64,000 bases of DNA from Arenicellales bacterium (GCA_963664525.1 OY761535.1:2703314-2767313), one strand, 5' to 3'. Positions 1-9,280 are shown, counted from the stretch's first letter. Made by a program: numbers and translations. Notes: generated by a model from the letters alone, not told the origin.

Positions 1-1356
1 CCACTCACTCCTGAAATCGACCGTGCTGACGTCATCGATCTTGACGATTTAAGGAATCCAATTTCCAAATCAATATTGCGAGTTGTGCGACGGCGATTAC
101 GAGAACTCCAGCGAAACAAAAGTTACCGACATCCAACGAGCATAGAAGCCAAATCAATCAGACAGTTTTTACGTCCGGATTTTGAATTGATTGTTGCGAA
201 AGGCGTTACTGTTGGCTATGCCGAATCTACGTTGTTGCGTTTAACCGAAGAGCAATATTCAAGACTTGATGAACTCGAAGCAAATTCCCGGTGTTTATTC
301 GACGGAGCCGCCGGAACTGGCAAAACACTGCTGTCTTTGGAGTACGCTCGTCGGGCTGGCTACTCTGGCAGGAAAGTTCTCTTCGTATGTTTTAATCGAC
401 TGTTAGGTGAATGGTTAAAGAAACAGACAACTGAAATGAACATTGTCACCGGTACATGGCACACTATCGCAAGAAGAATAATATTAACCAGTAGTGTCGC
501 GGATGAGTTCAAGGTGCTGGAGCGTGAGACATTAAAAACTGGCGATACGAATAAGTTGTTCAAAGAAACGTATCCGCTATTTGGAATGGTAGCACTTACG
601 GAGACAAGCAATAATTTGTTTGACGTTCTAGTAATTGATGAGGCACAGGATCTTTGTACCGAAGAAACCCTAGATTTCCTTAATTTGGCAATTCATGGTG
701 GATTGGCTGGCGGCCGCTGGGCAATATTTGGTGACTTTACCCGTCAAGCACTCTATGGTATACCCAAGAATTCCGTTGAAATTTTATCTAAGTATTGTGA
801 GCATTTTGTGAGAGCTAGACTTACATTGAATTGCAGGAATACTCGTAGAATTGCGGAAGAGACTTCAATTCTTTCAGGCTTCGAAAAACCACCATACAGG
901 ATGAATGTTGAGTTGGGACTTCCTGTCGAACATAGATATTGGCGAACACCTTCCGATCTTGTGGAGTCTCTCGAAACTACCCTAATGGGCTTGATTAAAG
1001 AGAAAGTCTCCATTGAGCATATCATGCTAATTTGCTCACGTCGACTAGAGCATTCAAGTTTGGCAGGAGTCAATCGAATACTGAATTATTCAATTATTGA
1101 CTGTTCAAGCGGCATGCCGAACGAAAATTCGAACGGCATCAAGTTTTCGACCATTCATTCATTTAAAGGGTTGGAAAGCCAAGTAGTTATTGTTTTGGAC
1201 ATCGAAGCAGTCGCCGGTGAGTTGGCACAGTCTCTGCTATACGTGGCAATGTCAAGAGCAAGAAGTCTTCTAATTCTTATGATTAACCAACGCATTAAGA
1301 AGGCTGTTGAATCCTGTATTCAGAAGGTAATTCAACAGGAGTTTAAATATGAGTGA
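1..1356 (+). CDS. SF1 (UvrD/RecD-like) P-loop helicase, 5'-truncated by the window edge
   Basis: Frame 1 is open from nt 1, with no stop before the first listed start at 76, so the gene begins upstream of the window. It has Walker A 'DGAAGTGKT', Walker B-like 'VLVIDEAQDL', 'LNCRNTRRI', and the C-terminal 'FSTIHSFKGLESQVVIVLD...LLYVAMSRARSLLIL' typical of SF1 helicases. Its stop overlaps the next ORF start by 8 nt. Confidence 0.75.
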   Translation, partial: PLTPEIDRADVIDLDDLRNPISKSILRVVRRRLRELQRNKSYRHPTSIEAKSIRQFLRPDFELIVAKGVTVGYAESTLLRLTEEQYSRLDELEANSRCLFDGAAGTGKTLLSLEYARRAGYSGRKVLFVCFNRLLGEWLKKQTTEMNIVTGTWHTIARRIILTSSVADEFKVLERETLKTGDTNKLFKETYPLFGMVALTETSNNLFDVLVIDEAQDLCTEETLDFLNLAIHGGLAGGRWAIFGDFTRQALYGIPKNSVEILSKYCEHFVRARLTLNCRNTRRIAEETSILSGFEKPPYRMNVELGLPVEHRYWRTPSDLVESLETTLMGLIKEKVSIEHIMLICSRRLEHSSLAGVNRILNYSIIDCSSGMPNENSNGIKFSTIHSFKGLESQVVIVLDIEAVAGELAQSLLYVAMSRARSLLILMINQRIKKAVESCIQKVIQQEFKYE

Positions 1357-4300
1357 AACCCTTTCTGCCCGGAAGTTTATCGTTGATTTCTTACGAAAGG
1401 AAATTGTAGGCCCCTCTCCAGGATTCCCTGCCATCCAACTTGACGGGCAAGAAATTCTTCGGCCGCAGGACCCACCGAGACAAAGATACAGTGCAGGAAT
1501 TTTGTTCCCAATGAGAGCGCAAGTTACCGGCCAAGAGGAAACAGGTGCCGAAGAAATTGCCAATCTAGAAGCCGAATCGCCAGAACCTGATCGAATCATG
1601 GAAGATACGAATGATACAGATACTTTCGATATGGCTGAGTCTGCCAGTACTGAAAACCCACCTGAAACTGACCGAGAAGTATCACTCGCTAACGAATACC
1701 TCCCTAGTGCAATGGGTCTTTCAGCGCTTTTGGAAATAACAGAATCTATTCAAGTGGATATACAAGTTGGAATTTATCAACATCAAGAACTTCAATCGAT
1801 TCGAAAAAAGCAAACCGGAAGTCATTATTGGAACTCTTACACGAAAGGCTGGTGGCGTGTTCCTGTTACGCACACAATAAAATTATCCGCCGCAGAACTA
1901 TTGGGAAATAGGCTGATATCTTTTGAAAGACCAGTTCATAAAGAGGATGAAAAGACAGTCTTGTCACTACACATTGTTAGTCGACCCTATCAACAATCTC
2001 CTGAGTTTAAACAAACAAGATTGATTACTTTCACCCTAATTAATCGAAGGCGTAGCGAAGGTCATACACCACATAATTCAGAGTGTTTTTTTCAATGTAG
2101 TTTTTCGGTAGTTGCAACTGATGGGAATGCCTGTTTCCGAAGTTACCCCGAAAAGGCAACCCAAAAAACTAACCCGGAGGAGTTGTCTCTACATCTGTTG
2201 TATTTGCACCGCCGAACTTTTGCGGTGGGGCATGGTTGTGCCGCTGACTGGAGGGAATCAGACACCGACCGTACAACACTCATTCGAACGGAGGTCATGC
2301 CGACGTACGAGATCAAGCCAGTCTTACCAACGCAAATTTCAAATCTAGATTTGTGTATGAAGGACTTGTCGTCCGATGACATTGAATCTTCGACGGTATC
2401 TTGTAGACAACTCTGTAAAGAATATGAGGCATGGATTACTGAAAGGGAAATCGAAATTGCACAAAGAATCGACTTGGCGGGCGAACTCAAGAATACTGCA
2501 AAAAAGCACATGGAAAACTGTAAAGAATGCCTTCGACGCATGTATGAAGGTATTGATCTTCTTGAGCAAGACGAAAACGTTACCCAAGCATTTCAGATGA
2601 TGAACGAAGCTATGTACATGCAACAGATCCATTATGAAATATCCTCTCGGAAAACGAGGAAATGGGTTCGCGATTCTGGCAATAAGTTAATACTAGAATG
2701 TCCGTTCGAACGACCCAACTATGAGGACATTGATCGAAAGTGGAGACCGTTTCAACTAGCTTTTATCCTGATGAACCTGAAAGCAGTCTCTGACCCTTAT
2801 TGTTCAGAGAGGAATATTGTTGATGTCATTTGGTTTCCGACGGGAGGTGGGAAAACAGAAGCTTATCTTGGACTTTCAGCATTTTGTATGTTTTTGAGAC
2901 GCCTCCGTAACCCTCGACATGCTGGAACAAGCATTCTTATGCGATACACGCTACGTCTATTGACGACACAACAATACCAGAGAGCAGCATCTTTAGTTTG
3001 TGCATGTGAAATAATTCGGCGTCGGGAGCAGAAACTATTGGGTAGCGATAGATTTTCGATCGGACTGTGGGTCGGTTCACAGGTAACTCCGAATTCCGAA
3101 GCTGATGCGGTAAATTCACTACGCGCAATGGCATCCAATCAAGGTGTTAACAAATTCATTCTACTCAGTTGCCCATGGTGTGGTGCGGCGATGGGACCGC
3201 AACAATTTGGAAAATTCACTAGGTGTAAGGGGTATAGACAACTGGCAAATCCGCGACGAGTCAGACATATTTGTGAAGACCCCGATTGTGACTTCAATTC
3301 CATTGGTAAAGGACTTCCGGTCGCAGTAATCGACGAACATATTTATGACTCCCCCCCTACACTACTTATCGGAACGGTCGACAAATTTGCCATGTTGACG
3401 TTCAGGCCAGAGGCACGCAGGTTATTTGGAATCGATACTCCCTACCCTCCACCTGAGTTAATCATTCAAGACGAATTGCACCTAATTTCTGGTCCGCTCG
3501 GCTCGATGGTTGGACACTATGAGACTGTTGTAAATGCATTGTGCGCGCGCGAATCCGGAGAAAATAAAATTCATGCAAAAATCATTGCTTCTACCGCAAC
3601 TGTATCTCGAGCGGACAGCCAGATAAAATGCCTATATGGTCGAGAAGCGTTTCTATTTCCGCCACAGGCACTCAAGGCTGGAGACTCATTCTTTGCGGAG
3701 GAAAGGGAAGATGAGGAAGGAAGACTCTATGTAGGAATTTTTGCGACGGCACTTCCGTCCCACGTAACAGCGCAAGTAAGAACGATGGGCGCATTATTAC
3801 AAGCACCGAAATGTTTTAGAACCAAGAATCCTGACACGATTGATCCCTATTGGACGATGATGGGTTATTTCAATAGTCTTCGAGAATTGGGGCACGCTGC
3901 TACATTAATCCGAGCAGATATTCGAGAATTCTTGAATGCTATGTGGGGCCGTCTCGGACTAAGATTCATCAAAGGAACAACAAGCGATGGCGACCTTCGC
4001 AGATTTTTGAAACCGAGTATAGAACTCACTAGTCGCGTGCAGAGCAATGACATTCCAGCAATTCTCCAGAGGTTATTTGCAACCTATGACAGTTCAAAGA
4101 ATACGGACGTTGTGGATGTCTGTTTTGCAACGAATATGATTCAGGTAGGGCTTGATGTTCCGAGATTAAGTTTGATGACAATAATTGGTCAACCAAAAAG
4201 TACATCCGAGTACATACAAGCGTCGAGCCGAGTTGGACGTGACCTCTCTCGTCCTGGCATTGTGGTTACAATTTACAACCCATTCAAGGCTAGGGACAGA

Positions 4301-4801
4301 TCGCACTATGAGCATTTTCGATCCTACCACCAAAGCATTTATCGACACGTAGAGCCAACTAGTGTCACCGCATTTGCCACACCAGTAAGGGAACGAGCAC
4401 TTCATGCACTCATCGTTATTTTGTGTCGATTTTGGGGCGGTGATCAACTCCTGAGGAATCCTAGTCCACCACCAAGCCCCAAATTAGTGGAGAGAATAAA
4501 GAAAATTATCCGAGAGAGAATTATGATTGTCGACCCAGAGGAATGGCTCAGTACAGAAGCATCAATTGATGAAATTATCCAACGATGGTCGACTACTCAA
4601 CCGTTTCGATACGGTGACTTCGGGCAACCTCTACCAGAATTACCTCTGTTGTATCCGGCAGGAGGACAAAAACATCCAAATTGGCAAAATTGGCCGTATG
4701 CAACACCTAGTTCAATGCGGAATGTGGATGCTGACTGCTCAGCACATCTTCTGTTCAACGGCTATAGTTCATCTTCACTTAACGAAGAAGAGTGGAATTA
4801 G
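1349..4801 (+). CDS. drmA: DrmA-like SF2 (DEAD/DEAH-type) helicase, 1150 aa
   Basis: Helicase motifs: I 'FPTGGGKTEAYLG', II 'IIQDELHLISGP', III 'IASTAT', VI 'QASSRVGR'. A Cys4 cluster 'CPWCG...CEDPDCDF' is inserted in the core. The ~480-aa N-terminal region has no motif I recognise. A DUF1998-type ORF follows after 4 nt, which is the DrmA/DrmB arrangement of DISARM. Confidence 0.65.
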   Translation: MSETLSARKFIVDFLRKEIVGPSPGFPAIQLDGQEILRPQDPPRQRYSAGILFPMRAQVTGQEETGAEEIANLEAESPEPDRIMEDTNDTDTFDMAESASTENPPETDREVSLANEYLPSAMGLSALLEITESIQVDIQVGIYQHQELQSIRKKQTGSHYWNSYTKGWWRVPVTHTIKLSAAELLGNRLISFERPVHKEDEKTVLSLHIVSRPYQQSPEFKQTRLITFTLINRRRSEGHTPHNSECFFQCSFSVVATDGNACFRSYPEKATQKTNPEELSLHLLYLHRRTFAVGHGCAADWRESDTDRTTLIRTEVMPTYEIKPVLPTQISNLDLCMKDLSSDDIESSTVSCRQLCKEYEAWITEREIEIAQRIDLAGELKNTAKKHMENCKECLRRMYEGIDLLEQDENVTQAFQMMNEAMYMQQIHYEISSRKTRKWVRDSGNKLILECPFERPNYEDIDRKWRPFQLAFILMNLKAVSDPYCSERNIVDVIWFPTGGGKTEAYLGLSAFCMFLRRLRNPRHAGTSILMRYTLRLLTTQQYQRAASLVCACEIIRRREQKLLGSDRFSIGLWVGSQVTPNSEADAVNSLRAMASNQGVNKFILLSCPWCGAAMGPQQFGKFTRCKGYRQLANPRRVRHICEDPDCDFNSIGKGLPVAVIDEHIYDSPPTLLIGTVDKFAMLTFRPEARRLFGIDTPYPPPELIIQDELHLISGPLGSMVGHYETVVNALCARESGENKIHAKIIASTATVSRADSQIKCLYGREAFLFPPQALKAGDSFFAEEREDEEGRLYVGIFATALPSHVTAQVRTMGALLQAPKCFRTKNPDTIDPYWTMMGYFNSLRELGHAATLIRADIREFLNAMWGRLGLRFIKGTTSDGDLRRFLKPSIELTSRVQSNDIPAILQRLFATYDSSKNTDVVDVCFATNMIQVGLDVPRLSLMTIIGQPKSTSEYIQASSRVGRDLSRPGIVVTIYNPFKARDRSHYEHFRSYHQSIYRHVEPTSVTAFATPVRERALHALIVILCRFWGGDQLLRNPSPPPSPKLVERIKKIIRERIMIVDPEEWLSTEASIDEIIQRWSTTQPFRYGDFGQPLPELPLLYPAGGQKHPNWQNWPYATPSSMRNVDADCSAHLLFNGYSSSSLNEEEWN

Positions 4802-4805
4802 CGAC

Positions 4806-6662
4806 ATGCCGAATTATCGACCAATTCGAAGAGGTCAATTGATCATACCGTTCGGAGTTGGAGCTTTGGTGGACTTCAGAAACGACGAATCACTCATGAC
4901 TGCTGGACTAGATGAATGGCCGTTTGCTAATGAAGAATGTCCAAAAGATTGGCACGTGAGCGAAGAACGGCTTCAATCACGACTGGATGTTTCCCATTTC
5001 AGGCTTCCTCCAGATTATCGAAATCCTGGACCAAACATAAACTATCCAAATCAACGCATCCCATTTGTTCGTTTCCCGAGATGGCACTACTGTCCAATGA
5101 GAGGGGCGATGGAAAAACTGTCGCTGTTCGGTGACCAACCAAAATGTCCCTGCCGTCCCGGTCTCGATTGTGAAAAATTACCCCAATCGAAGCGTCCAAA
5201 ATTGATTCCCAGTAGATTCGTTTCAATCTGCCCAAAAGGGCACATTGAAGACTTTCCATTTATGGAATGGGTTCACAAGAATGACAATTGGGATTCGACA
5301 CACAAGTTGCGCCTTCTGCCAGGCCGTTCTTCTGCCAGTCTGTCGGGAATCGAGATTCGATGCAACTGTGGTAAAGTCGAAAATTTGGCCGGTATATTCA
5401 ATTTTGATGCAACAGGTGGCTCACTTCACAGGATCGGATATGACTGTTCTGGAGGAAAACCTTGGGTTGGAGACGAAGGTAACAAAGGCTCTTGTGGAGA
5501 ACATCTTCGAGTAGTGCAAAGGGGATCATCCAACGTTTACTTCCCCCTTACGGTGTCATCGATTTATCTTCCTCTCTGGGGTGAAGATATATCTCGTACG
5601 ATAAATCAGATTCTCGATGACAAGCAGGTTTGGGAGGTTTTGACCTCTGGTTTGGACGATGGTAAATACATACAAATGTTCCGTTGTGAAATGATTGCGC
5701 AACTATATGGAGTTGATGCAGACGAACTAAGTAAAGCTGCTCAGAAAAAACTAGATGGGAGTTCAAATCTCAGGCACTCGAAGTATCGAACTGAAGAAGA
5801 GTTTCGACGACAGGAGTTTGAAGCACTCAGATTGGGTAGGGGTAGCGAATCAACAGACTTAATGGTTGAAGTGAGAAATGCAGACAAATATGGACCGGAA
5901 TTGGGAAAATTTTTAAACAAAATTTGTCTAGTAAAGAAACTTCGTGAAACACGGGTATTGGTTGGATTCTCGAGACTACTACCGGTAGAAGATTCAGAAT
6001 CTCAGCACCTGCTTCCCATCTCAGACAACATCAATTTAAATTGGTTGCCAGCATCCGTTGTTTATGGTGAAGGAATATTTTTTGAGTTCAACGGTGCAAT
6101 GATTTGTGATTGGTTGGAAAACGAAGAGGTAAGGGAACGAGTAATTAGTATGAAACGGAGTTATAACCAGAGTCGAATAGAACGAGGAATGGGTGAAGTC
6201 GAATTTGCCACAAAGTACATTCTTCTACATTCTTTCGCACATGCTTTGATCGGACAATTGAGTGTAGATTGTGGTTATGGCAGCGCAGCATTAAGAGAAC
6301 GAATTTACTGCGAACCGAACGACTCGGCTGAACCTATGCAAGGTGTGTTGATTTATACCGCATCAGGCGACTCCGAAGGCACTTTAGGCGGATTGGTCCG
6401 ACAAGGAGAACCTGAAAACATGATCTCCGCGTTCGAAAGAGCGCTTCATCGCGCACAATGGTGTTCCAGCGACCCTGTATGTATCGAAAGCGTGGGGCAG
6501 GGTAGCGACAATGCTAACTTGGCAGCTTGCCATGGTTGTTTACTGTTGCCAGAAACATCTTGTGAAACCGGGAATAGACTCTTGGACCGAGGTATGCTAT
6601 TAGGAACGCCACAAGATCCTAGCATAGGTTTCTTTTCGTATCTAGAAAAAACAAATGATTAA
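4806..6662 (+). CDS. drmB: DrmB-like DUF1998 (MrfA-type Zn-binding domain) protein
   Basis: The likely start is ATG 4806 (MPNYRPIRRGQ...), 4 nt after the drmA-like stop. The track ORF from 4527 is an upstream extension overlapping drmA. The C-terminal 'WCSSDPVC...ACHGCLLLPETSCETGNRLLDR' is the Cys-rich DUF1998 signature. Further Cys/His clusters occur mid-protein ('HYCPMRG..KCPCRPGLDCEK', 'ICPKGH', 'IRCNCG'). Confidence 0.65.
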   Translation: MPNYRPIRRGQLIIPFGVGALVDFRNDESLMTAGLDEWPFANEECPKDWHVSEERLQSRLDVSHFRLPPDYRNPGPNINYPNQRIPFVRFPRWHYCPMRGAMEKLSLFGDQPKCPCRPGLDCEKLPQSKRPKLIPSRFVSICPKGHIEDFPFMEWVHKNDNWDSTHKLRLLPGRSSASLSGIEIRCNCGKVENLAGIFNFDATGGSLHRIGYDCSGGKPWVGDEGNKGSCGEHLRVVQRGSSNVYFPLTVSSIYLPLWGEDISRTINQILDDKQVWEVLTSGLDDGKYIQMFRCEMIAQLYGVDADELSKAAQKKLDGSSNLRHSKYRTEEEFRRQEFEALRLGRGSESTDLMVEVRNADKYGPELGKFLNKICLVKKLRETRVLVGFSRLLPVEDSESQHLLPISDNINLNWLPASVVYGEGIFFEFNGAMICDWLENEEVRERVISMKRSYNQSRIERGMGEVEFATKYILLHSFAHALIGQLSVDCGYGSAALRERIYCEPNDSAEPMQGVLIYTASGDSEGTLGGLVRQGEPENMISAFERALHRAQWCSSDPVCIESVGQGSDNANLAACHGCLLLPETSCETGNRLLDRGMLLGTPQDPSIGFFSYLEKTND

Positions 6663-6961
6663 CTCTGCCTCGATTTAGCCTTAACTGCATTCGTTGTGTC
6701 CGAAGCCTGCTAACAGTACCTGAATTGAACATTTGATAGTGAGAATCATAAAATATTTTTGAATCGAGATTGATCTCCTAAAGATCATTTTGCCTACCAA
6801 CAAAAGGTAAGCTAACTTTCGTTCAAGTTCAAAATTTCCATTGAAAGCTAAGGGAAGTTACGCCACTTGATGAATTTGTTCAAAATATAATTAGGTGTGT
6901 TAAAAAATCTTGCGAATACTCGTTTCAGACACATCGAAATTGAAGTAAAAGGGACATAACT

Positions 6962-8029
6962 TTGAAATCATTTCGTTTTATTGATCTTTTTGCAGGGATC
7001 GGTGGTTTCAGAAAGGGATTTGAGACTGTTGGTGGACAGTGTGTATTCACTTCCGAATGGGACAAATTCTCGATAGATACTTATAGATCGAACAATGATT
7101 GCGACGACCATGTCGTCGTGGGTGATATTCAGTCTGTACATGCGGATGAAATCCCCGAACACGATGTGTTACTCGCAGGATTTCCTTGCCAGCCATTTTC
7201 ACTTGCTGGTGTATCGAAAAAAAACGCATTGAACCAGTATCACGGATTCAATTGCGCCACCCAAGGCACATTATTTTTCGATATTGCGCGTATTCTTGAT
7301 GTTCAAAGGCCGAAAGCTTTTCTGTTAGAAAACGTCAAGAATCTAGTCAGTCACAATCAGGGCAAAACATTTGACGTGATTCGTCGTACGTTGGAAATCG
7401 AGTTGGACTACAAGATAAATTTCCGCATAATTGATGCAAAAGGATTCGTACCTCAACACCGGGAGCGTATCTTTATTGTCGGTTTCAGAGATTCAAATGG
7501 CTTCACATTTGATGACTTTGAAATACCTCACGACTCCCCGCAACTAAAATCAATTTTACACCCGGAAAACGGTACTGAGGAAGCGGAAGAACCATTTACA
7601 TATGGGTGGTCGGCAAGAGTTGCAGACAAATACACGCTTTCTGACCGCCTCTGGCAATATTTACGAGACTATGCGAAAAAACATCGAGCAAAAGGTAATG
7701 GCTTTGGATATGGCCTAGTTGGAAAATACGATGTTTCACGCACGCTATCAGCCCGTTATTTCAAGGACGGTTCGGAAATACTGATAAAACAGAAAGGTAA
7801 AAAAAATCCCAGAAGATTGACTCCTCGCGAATGCGCTCGATTGATGGGGTTTGACAGTTCAGTAGAGCGCAAATTCACAATCCCTGTTTCAGATGCACAA
7901 GCATACAAACAATTCGGGAACGCGGTAGTTGTACCAGTTGTCGAAGCTGTGGCTCGGCACATGCGCCCTTGGATAATTGATGAAAATACCGATTATCGGC
8001 CGAGCAGTATCACTAATCACCGTGTCTGA
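6962..8029 (+). CDS. dcm: DNA (cytosine-5)-methyltransferase
   Basis: All the C5-MTase motifs are present: I 'FAGIGGF', IV 'GFPCQPFS', VI 'ENVKNL', VIII '[10 protein letters not shown]', IX '[14 protein letters not shown]', X 'QFGNAVVVP'. TTG start at 6962, preceded by AAGGGA. Confidence 0.9.
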
Positions 8030-8477
8030 CATAGTCGATGCTCAAACTCGTAGCCGGATGATGTCCGGCATTCGAAGCAAAAATACCAAGCCTGAATTGA
8101 TAATTCGGCAAGGGCTACACAGACTGGGATTTCGCTTCAGATTGCATTCAACCCAATTGCCGGGGAAACCTGATTTGATTCTTCCGCGTTATCGGGTCGC
8201 AATTTTTGTCAACGGTTGCTTTTGGCATGGCCATGGTTGCCACCTATTCAGATACCCTTCAACGCGCAAAGACTTTTGGCAAACTAAGATTCAACAGAAC
8301 GCGAAACGCGATCAGGAAGTTTCAACTAATTTGCTTAAAGCAGGCTGGAGGCAACTTGTAGTCTGGGAATGTGCCCTCAGGGGAAGAAAAAAACTTAACT
8401 TGGATGAATTATTGAAACATGCTGAAATATGGATCAAGGGAAGCGACAAATTTTTGGAGATCGCAGGTTCGGAATGA
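7980..8477 (+). CDS. vsr: Very-short-patch repair endonuclease (T:G mismatch)
   Basis: Close to E. coli Vsr over its whole length ('[17 protein letters not shown]', '[10 protein letters not shown]', '[13 protein letters not shown]', '[12 protein letters not shown]'). The start is either ATG 7980 or GTG 8022. Both overlap the dcm 3' end (stop 8027-8029), as in the E. coli dcm-vsr pair. Confidence 0.9.
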
Positions 8478-8512
8478 AGAGTTGGGTTGTTAGCAATGAT
8501 GTTCGGTGACAT

Positions 8513-8953
8513 ATGAGTGGTACAGTTCTCGATGACATTACAAGCGAATTCGTAGACGCGCAACATATTCAACGACGCGTTGATGACTGGGAGGAACGAG
8601 TAAAAAACCTCTATGTAAAGATCAGCGATTGGTTGCTAGATGGATGGGAAGCGCGCCAAGGGACACCTGTTATTATGCATGAGCCGTTAATGCGCAACTT
8701 CGAAATTGAAGCCAGGCAAATTCCAACGCTTAATCTCTTTAACCAGTCGGGTGATTCGGTTAAATTTGTACCTCGTGGACTGTGGATCATCGGTAACAAT
8801 GGACGTATCGATTTGAAACACAATGGCCAACACTACCTCATTGTTGATTTCGCTGAAAACTTTGAGCAACCGAACTGGCAGGCAATCAATGCTGAGAATA
8901 GATCTGAGCGTGAAGAAGTAACGCAAGAATGGCTGACACGCATTATTCAGTAA
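8513..8953 (+). CDS. Hypothetical protein (146 aa), no recognisable domain
   Basis: ATG-initiated ORF co-directional with dcm-vsr, 35 nt downstream of vsr. It is the last ORF before the compositional shift. No motif recognised. Confidence 0.45.
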   Translation: MSGTVLDDITSEFVDAQHIQRRVDDWEERVKNLYVKISDWLLDGWEARQGTPVIMHEPLMRNFEIEARQIPTLNLFNQSGDSVKFVPRGLWIIGNNGRIDLKHNGQHYLIVDFAENFEQPNWQAINAENRSEREEVTQEWLTRIIQ

Positions 8954-9280
8954 GTCAACAATTTCTAACTTGTACCCAGAATATATGACCCAATAACACT
9001 CGTAGGATTCTCCTTTAGCCGCAAAGTTGGTATGGCGATGGATTGACCGGCACTGGAGACTGAAGGCATTCAACATTCAAATCTGTCAATTTCCATGATC
9101 ATTACCCTGTCCAGTGAGACAATCTGCAACGCAGATCTACGACATTAAGGCTCAAACGAAAATGCTTCATTGTTGCACCCAAACGTATCTGGCAAGTTAA
9201 AATGATACCCTCTGAAATCTGATGATCCTGCGCCTGTCCACCGCAGCGCAGCGATTCACCGCAATGACACCATTTTGATT

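Follow-up and report, generated by a model that had tools for sequence, protein, structure and literature searches.

A probable class 2-type DISARM island in an Arenicellales bacterium with a NERD-SF1 nuclease-helicase in the probable place of DrmC

We analyzed a stretch of 64,000 nucleotides from an Arenicellales bacterium (GCA_963664525.1 OY761535.1:2703314-2767313, hereafter the window), which on the + strand of positions 1-8953 carries the 3' part of a superfamily 1 (SF1) helicase gene, drmA, drmB, a gene for a Dcm-like methyltransferase, vsr and an orphan open reading frame (ORF). This region is probably the right-hand part of a six-gene island of DISARM (a defence island system that is associated with restriction-modification), of class 2 type and with the order drmE, NERD-SF1 helicase, drmA, drmB, drmMII and vsr, in which the NERD-SF1 protein stands in the place of DrmC. 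Class 2 DISARM of the Bacillus paralicheniformis type consists of drmE, drmA, drmB, drmC and drmMII. The original definition counts DrmC, the phospholipase D (PLD) protein, among the core components, but it can be dispensed with and is frequently missing. Judged by its genes, the locus described here probably belongs to class 2 and is non-canonical only in having no DrmC and in carrying a NERD-SF1 gene between drmE and drmA. System, core and logic are already established; what appears to be new is the variant with the NERD-SF1 helicase.

The DISARM core of the locus was recognized at curated thresholds. DrmA scored 959.7 bits on the NCBIfam equivalog DISARM_DrmAS (cutoff 950) and E=9e-224 on the PADLOC DrmA model, and it stayed under the cutoff of the long-form model with 628 bits vs 999. 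It carries the motifs GGGKT at residue 499 and DELH at 708. The alignment with the solved DrmA of Serratia (PDB 7S9V_A, E=1.6e-147) begins at Serratia residue 164, so the N-terminal region of the long class 1 form is missing. DrmB reached 460.7 bits on NCBIfam DrmB_fam (cutoff 240), matched Pfam MZB (E=1e-9) and DUF1998, aligned with PDB 7S9V_B across residues 7-610 (E=1.3e-71) and has a C-terminal cysteine cluster at 553-586. The original prediction, made from the window alone, had named a DrmA-like helicase and a DUF1998 DrmB-like protein as a DISARM core, which is borne out by the thresholds reached and by the full-length match to the solved DrmAB pair. Residues 55-115 of DrmA (window 1511-1693) form an acidic low-complexity loop with 18 D/E and 3 K/R per 61 residues, which aligns to residues 176-232 of Serratia DrmA, the autoinhibitory trigger loop (PMC9142583). 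The alignment suggests that autoinhibition by a DNA mimic is retained in the short class 2-type DrmA.

Relatives of the locus were collected with a DrmA scan of the genome collection, which returned 18 loci at 52-72% identity from metagenome-assembled genomes (MAGs) of several phyla, and further loci were added from metagenome and protein-index look-ups. The metagenome scan gave only relatives at ≤64% identity, and E. coli genomes gave no match. In 20 loci from Dehalococcoidia, Alpha- and Gammaproteobacteria and a Spartobacteria MAG the genes for DrmE (~855 aa), NERD-helicase, DrmA and DrmB follow each other in this order, overlapping or narrowly spaced. A DrmE-family gene lies directly 5' of the helicase in all 20 related loci that have the helicase (gap ~20-30 nt), and at its other end the helicase gene runs into drmA or directly adjoins it. 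Of the upstream proteins, four were scored with NCBIfam DrmE_fam (cutoff 80) and reached 129-191 bits with almost the full model covered, and Pfam DrmE_C was matched by 17 of 18. The closest relative, L023, encodes proteins 79-82% identical to those of the window and is colinear with window positions 1 to ~8510, with the order DrmE, NERD-helicase, DrmA, DrmB, Dcm, Vsr; it is flanked by housekeeping genes upstream and by an AbiEi-domain gene followed by housekeeping genes downstream. The source genome itself encodes a DrmE-family protein of 850 aa (P0122), which is 63% identical to the DrmE of L023 and scores 189.9 bits on DrmE_fam. Its contig measures 3,458,003 bp, and the contig with the full-length helicase has exactly this length too. 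These findings make it very probable that drmE is located immediately upstream of the window. Because a DrmE-family gene is found upstream in the relatives and the source genome also encodes one, the locus is assigned to class 2 by composition. The original prediction had recognized no DrmE in the window and considered a third architectural variant of DISARM or a distinct system, naming canonical drmE/drmC or drmD genes upstream as the finding that would speak for an ordinary class; a third variant without DrmE was not supported, as DrmE is in effect found there through the relatives and the source genome.

PADLOC-DB v2.0.0 gave no DrmE match for L015:5635-8220, L009:7008-9719 and L012:6743-9898, which score 129-179 bits on DrmE_fam; the L012 protein matched only mREase_IV, in its N-terminal domain. 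With the DrmE of these relatives missed, this version may label loci of the kind incomplete or "other" DISARM.

Compared with class 2 DISARM, the locus shares the short-form DrmA, the separate DrmB, a DrmE-family gene (upstream in the relatives, and present in the source genome), a DrmMII forming 5-methylcytosine (5mC) with CCWGG as its probable target, and the position in a defence island of lower GC content. It differs in having no PLD gene, in the NERD-SF1 gene between drmE and drmA, in the Vsr accompanying the methylase and in a DrmE that fits only the broad DrmE_fam and not the narrow DISARM_DrmE equivalog. With class 1 DISARM of Serratia sp. SCBI (PDB 7S9V/7S9W) it has in common homologous DrmA and DrmB and the acidic loop at the trigger loop, whereas DrmA is without the N-terminal ~160 residues (EVE-like). 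Neither the SNF2 helicase DrmD nor the N6-adenine methylase DrmMI was found in window 1-9000 with Pfam and PADLOC, and the cassette of L023 is bounded by housekeeping genes.

The PLD motif HxKx4D...GSxN was absent from all six frames of the 64-kb window and of 24 related loci (L001-L024). A Pfam scan of 133 flanking ORFs showed no recurring PLD family, and all-against-all clustering of flanking ORFs showed no conserved family besides DrmE, helicase, DrmA, DrmB, methylase and Vsr. The best 25 PADLOC matches of the 133 ORFs were all to methyltransferase models and are uninformative for DrmC. The original prediction had likewise seen neither DrmC nor DrmD in the window; to this can now be added the lack of DrmMI, and of a PLD gene in the relatives examined.

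The gene in front of drmA encodes more than a helicase. The full-length protein P0001 (590 aa) is 100% identical to the part encoded in the window, and its first 139 residues, which lie outside the window, constitute a NERD nuclease domain (PF08378) also matched in orthologues. The part encoded in the window matched Pfam UvrD_C_2, ResIII and AAA_30 as well as PADLOC RTasNERD-Hel (E=6e-30), the best PADLOC model at 103-139 bits, the highest value being that of the full-length L015 orthologue. The catalytic D...E-x-K motif of NERD is present in P0001. In an alignment of 40 homologues D54, E68 and K70 of NERD, the Walker A motif at 241-248, DEAQD at 352-356 and the motif VI arginine were invariant. 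The helicase stop overlaps drmA by 8 nt, the drmA ATG at 1349 lying inside AAATATGAGTGA. We conclude that NERD-SF1 is a conserved, translationally coupled partner of drmA and not a chance neighbour. From the gene coupling, the conservation, the intact catalytic residues, the lack of a PLD protein and the occupancy of the DrmC slot in distant relatives we infer that this protein takes over from DrmC as the effector nuclease-helicase. Of the earlier view of this gene, the identity as a UvrD/RecD-type SF1 helicase coupled to drmA stood, with a fixed slot in the relatives; the NERD domain, encoded outside the window and so not visible to the original prediction, changes its likely role.

No solved structure homologous to the helicase was detectable by sequence search. 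The AlphaFold model of P0001 was moderate, with a predicted local distance difference test (pLDDT) score of 68 and a predicted template modelling (TM) score of 0.46. Foldseek placed human Schlafen-11/14 on top, followed by UvrD, Rep, Upf1 and GajB, at TM scores of 0.2-0.36. We set this result aside as a diagnosis of the helicase, since it fits a nuclease-plus-SF1 build and is not diagnostic. Schlafen-11/14, immune proteins combining a nuclease and an SF1 helicase, were matched with E down to 2e-15 at a TM score of only ~0.27, and weak Pfam SLFN-g3_helicase matches were seen for the NERD-SF1 helicase as well.

The association of this helicase family with DrmA and DrmB, for which the original prediction had asked for a survey across genomes, was also seen at lower identity. 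All three helicase homologues examined at 56-62% identity, the lower end of the best 120, were encoded after drmE and before drmA. At only 24-32% identity, NERD-helicases still adjoin DrmA/DrmB-like genes on 8 of 15 complete plasmids. They lie upstream of drmA on Rhodococcus opacus pROB02, Deinococcus gobiensis P4 and in D. psychrotolerans, and directly after drmB, the usual position of DrmC, in Azospirillum ramasamyi and on three Rhizobium plasmids. On the Azospirillum and Rhizobium plasmids the upstream gene encodes a UvrD-like helicase and not DrmE; for the Azospirillum protein, homology to DrmE was rejected at an hhalign probability of 0.1.

It is possible, and we put this forward tentatively, that DISARM has a widespread branch without DrmC in which NERD-SF1 is the dedicated effector for degrading DNA and is brought to unmethylated invader DNA by either DrmAB or DrmE, and that the partnership arose in at least two gene orders, before drmA together with DrmE and after drmB together with a UvrD-like helicase. 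If true, this would answer which nuclease acts in DISARM systems without a PLD protein.

The operons on the Azospirillum ramasamyi plasmid (L030:2143-11662) and on Rhizobium ruizarguesonis pTA1_2 (L031:2464-11500) consist of genes for a UvrD-like helicase (787-929 aa), a DrmA-like protein, a DUF1998 protein and the NERD-helicase, and look like an unnamed DISARM-like architecture. The DrmA-like protein of L030 scores 909.8 bits on DrmAS, just under the cutoff. No methylase is annotated near either operon, and the Azospirillum operon is followed by a DarT toxin gene.

The methyltransferase of the island matched Pfam DNA_methylase (PF00145, 277.9 bits, E=2e-82) and, in PADLOC, MTase_II with 489 bits and DrmMII with 426 bits (E=1e-128). 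It is 53% identical to Dcm of E. coli K-12 in the catalytic and target-recognition regions and is without the ~85-residue N-terminal extension of that enzyme. Because the identity extends through the target-recognition region, the methyltransferase is predicted to target CCWGG, the sequence marked by the DrmMII of Bacillus class 2 DISARM (10.1101/2021.12.28.474362). The overlapping vsr product matched its Pfam family with E=2e-30 and TIGR00632 with 147 bits and is 43% identical to E. coli Vsr; similarity starts at about codon 16, and the true start may lie slightly later than 7977. At least 13 related loci have Vsr alongside the cassette. The pair thus resembles E. coli dcm-vsr in its overlapping methylase and repair genes and differs from it in lying in a mobile defence island beside DrmAB.

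CCWGG was found at 5 sites in window 1-9000 vs 14.3 expected from a third-order Markov model, an observed-to-expected ratio of 0.35, and with a ratio of 1.14 in window 9001-64000. CTWGG/CCWAG, CCSGG and GGWCC showed no depletion in the island (1-9000). The depletion of CCWGG could reflect restriction avoidance by a mobile island. As a signature of very-short-patch repair, CCWGG enrichment was considered and dropped as evidence for Dcm/Vsr activity: CCWGG is ~2-fold enriched compared with dinucleotide shuffles, but only 1.14-fold in the host compared with the third-order Markov model.

Together these components suggest the following mode of action, of which the self mark with its Vsr repair and the sensing by DrmAB and DrmE are drawn by homology to characterised systems. 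DrmMII would methylate host CCWGG to 5mC as the self mark, and Vsr would repair the T:G mismatches arising from 5mC deamination at CCWGG and so limit the mutational cost. DrmA and DrmB would form the core helicase complex, held off by the acidic trigger loop and activated by unmethylated DNA ends of the invader, with DrmE required as in the class 2 system of Bacillus. NERD-SF1, a predicted PD-(D/E)xK nuclease with an SF1 translocase co-translated with DrmA, would replace the PLD nuclease DrmC as effector, unwinding the marked DNA of the invader and cutting it.

A number of findings weigh against this interpretation, and some of them favor other explanations. The DrmE proteins score 18 bits on the narrow DISARM_DrmE equivalog (cutoff 250); in PADLOC two of them had no match and a third matched only with its N-terminal mREase_IV domain. 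The adjacency of drmE in the source genome is deduced from the relatives and from the equal length of the contigs that carry P0122 and P0001, as the window starts inside the helicase gene. The structural model of the helicase is mediocre (pLDDT 68), and its nuclease and anti-phage activities are predictions from sequence. Type, position and strand of the methyltransferase vary among the relatives, which carry it upstream, downstream or on the opposite strand with 24-79% identity to the Dcm of the window. The C-terminal domain of EcoRII, a restriction enzyme specific for CCWGG, occurs in two flanking ORFs (E=2e-60), and some of the neighbouring Dcm-like methylases may belong to EcoRII-type or ordinary restriction-modification modules and not to DISARM. 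Finally, some loci of the DrmA clade do not encode the helicase: L009 and L016 consist of DrmE-DrmA-DrmB only, and L012 and L033-L035 have instead a DrmE fused at its N-terminus to a ScoMcrA-type domain. The NERD-helicase is therefore dispensable in the DrmA clade, a recurrent but optional module.

The variable methylase and the EcoRII domains would agree with two unrelated modules lying side by side, a methylation-independent system of DrmE, NERD-helicase and DrmAB and a Dcm-Vsr pair independent of it. That pair could be an orphan methylase with its repair partner or what remains of an EcoRII-type restriction-modification system, and the methylase would then not provide the self mark. The 299-bp gap between drmB and dcm-vsr would fit such a boundary. 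It probably holds a separate dcm-vsr promoter; promoter-like hexamers occur in the spacer at 6725-6754, with no more sites than chance, and a promoter and terminator scan of the gap gave nothing above chance. The operons of DrmAB and NERD-helicase on the Azospirillum and Rhizobium plasmids, with no annotated methylase nearby, and the self-contained dcm-vsr of E. coli point in the same direction. However, nearly every intact locus has a 5mC methyltransferase no more than a few kb away, the exceptions being L009 and the remnant L004, which is flanked by insertion sequences, and the order drmB-dcm-vsr is kept in L023. Class 2 DISARM is moreover defined with a 5mC DrmMII, the characterised one marks CCWGG, and the methylase of the window scores 426 bits on the PADLOC DrmMII model. 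We therefore regard two merely adjacent modules as unlikely, and the association of methylase and core, which the original prediction had proposed for the window and wished to see examined in relatives, as upheld.

Less probable still is that NERD-SF1 is a self-sufficient single-gene defence of the Nhi or GajB kind that lodged in a DISARM operon and acts independently of DrmAB. DrmA-clade members such as L009 and L016 work without the helicase, distant NERD-helicases occur without DrmAB on Thermomicrobium and Selenomonas plasmids, with other members alone or in other contexts, and PADLOC matched the protein to Nhi, GajB, AbiO and a NERD+UvrD candidate. The matches to GajB, Nhi and AbiO are limited to generic helicase motifs, however, and no reverse transcriptase or GajA was found in the window or the relatives, where the context of the helicase is always DrmE/DrmA. 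The 8-nt overlap with drmA, the constant position after drmE and before drmA, seen in 20 loci of several phyla and in the three sampled homologues, and the renewed pairing of distant homologues with DrmAB in another gene order likewise argue for a partner of DrmAB. What the protein has in common with Nhi, Gabija GajB and PADLOC RTasNERD-Hel is the logic of a nuclease combined with an SF1/UvrD-like ATPase; it differs in being co-translated within a DISARM operon, with no reverse transcriptase or GajA as partner.

It is highly improbable that the helicase and DUF1998 proteins serve DNA repair as an MrfA/YprA-like module or belong to a Druantia- or Dpd-type system: DUF1998/MZB is common to MrfA, DruE and DpdJ, but the weak PADLOC and NCBIfam hits to DruE (12.8 bits), DpdJ (25-29 bits) and DpdF amount to 13-29 bits overall vs 743-960 for DrmA, helicase and DUF1998 are encoded by separate genes and not fused as in those systems, the solved DrmA and DrmB are matched over the full length of both proteins, a DrmE and a methylase accompany them, and no MrfB, 7-deazaguanine or Druantia genes were seen, so that the 1150-aa and 618-aa pair, for which the original prediction had allowed such a family, stands as DISARM.

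The proposed class 2-type island with NERD-SF1 in the place of DrmC joins other departures from the canonical systems. DISARM is widespread; DrmC, its only predicted nuclease, is dispensable and frequently missing, and the structural paper describes the acting nuclease as a mystery (PMC9142583). RmuC/ShdA proteins were described in ~70 DISARM-like operons (PMC10270631), a SAR11 DISARM-like operon contains helicases and no DrmC (10.64898/2025.12.11.693642), and "many uncharacterized DISARM-like classes" have been mentioned (10.1101/2025.09.15.676423). The ShdA/RmuC and SAR11 loci resemble the island in combining DrmAB and a methylase with another recruited nuclease or helicase and no PLD protein; compared with the ShdA/RmuC loci, the protein recruited here is a NERD (PD-(D/E)xK) domain with an SF1 helicase and not an RmuC-domain protein. 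In the searched literature that names DISARM together with DrmA we found no link between a NERD helicase and DISARM, and in the single paper with all three terms NERD denotes the unrelated TALON system; the supplement of the original 2018 paper lies outside that comparison. The nuclease slot of DISARM thus appears modular, filled by PLD, RmuC/ShdA or NERD-SF1, with sister loci in which a reader of modified DNA is fused to DrmE. In at least 20 loci of several phyla the PLD gene appears to be replaced by a nuclease-helicase that is built into the operon and has intact active sites, which makes it a testable candidate effector.

The coordinates of all features are given in Table 1. Every ORF, overlap and gap of the earlier layout was confirmed at its position on the + strand. 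Starting at position 1, frame 1 has no stop before the TGA at 1354-1356, and the first gene therefore continues past the left edge, as had been predicted. The drmB ATG at 4806 follows the drmA TAG (4799-4801) after 4 nt (CGAC), and drmB ends at 6662. GC content is 0.43-0.45 up to ~9 kb and 0.50-0.53 beyond, and 9.2-21 kb hold housekeeping genes for glutamate-synthase-like proteins, glutamine synthetase, AnmK, an M23 peptidase and TyrRS. Because of the GC rise (0.44 to 0.51) and the housekeeping genes from ~9.2 kb on, the island is taken to end just after 8953.

Table 1. Features of the DISARM island within the window.
Feature	Position	Strand	Basis
NERD-SF1 (UvrD/RecD-like) nuclease-helicase, 3' 451 codons	1..1356	+	frame 1, Pfam, PADLOC RTasNERD-Hel, P0001
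drmA, short class 2-type SF2 helicase, 1150 aa	1349..4801	+	NCBIfam, PADLOC, PDB 7S9V_A
drmB, DUF1998/MZB zinc-binding DrmA partner, 618 aa	4806..6662	+	NCBIfam, Pfam, PDB 7S9V_B
AT-rich intergenic spacer, 299 bp	6663..6961	.	sequence; hexamers at chance level
drmMII, Dcm-like C5-cytosine methyltransferase, 355 aa, TTG start	6962..8029	+	Pfam, PADLOC, E. coli Dcm identity
vsr, very-short-patch T:G mismatch endonuclease, overlaps dcm	7977..8477	+	Pfam, TIGR00632, E. coli Vsr identity
orphan ORF, 146 aa, ATG start, no family	8513..8953	+	no profile match, no counterpart in relatives

The orphan ORF sits between vsr and the GC shift at the island end. Pfam, PADLOC and NCBIfam returned nothing for it, tblastn showed no counterpart among the related loci, and the colinearity with L023 breaks at ~8510, just before it. 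The ORF is not kept alongside the cassette and probably does not belong to the system.

Among the relatives a sister variant was noticed in L012:6743-9898, L033:8001-11123, L034:1902-5024 and L035:957-4115, where DrmE carries a ScoMcrA-type DNA sulfur-binding (phosphorothioate-reader) domain (Pfam PF26340; NCBIfam PT-DNA_restrict, 128 bits) and is followed by DrmA and DrmB. L012, L033 and L034 also have Vsr and a 5mC methylase, and L035 ends inside DrmB. Other loci are decayed: in L021:7000-9956 and L022:6166-9122 DrmE is spread over four frames and followed by a NERD fragment only, and L004:8694-17029 retains DrmA-DrmB between IS30 and IS66 transposases and lacks DrmE, the helicase and the methylase. 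Other defence genes lie beside the cassette (L017:17048-22270, L026:1-3848 and L009:3379-6618), including a 1741-aa protein with DUF4011/AAA_11/AAA_12/MTES_1575 (PADLOC PDC-S37, Hhe-like) and a NACHT protein like EruA (587 bits, below the cutoff), indicating that in the relatives the cassette sits in defence islands.

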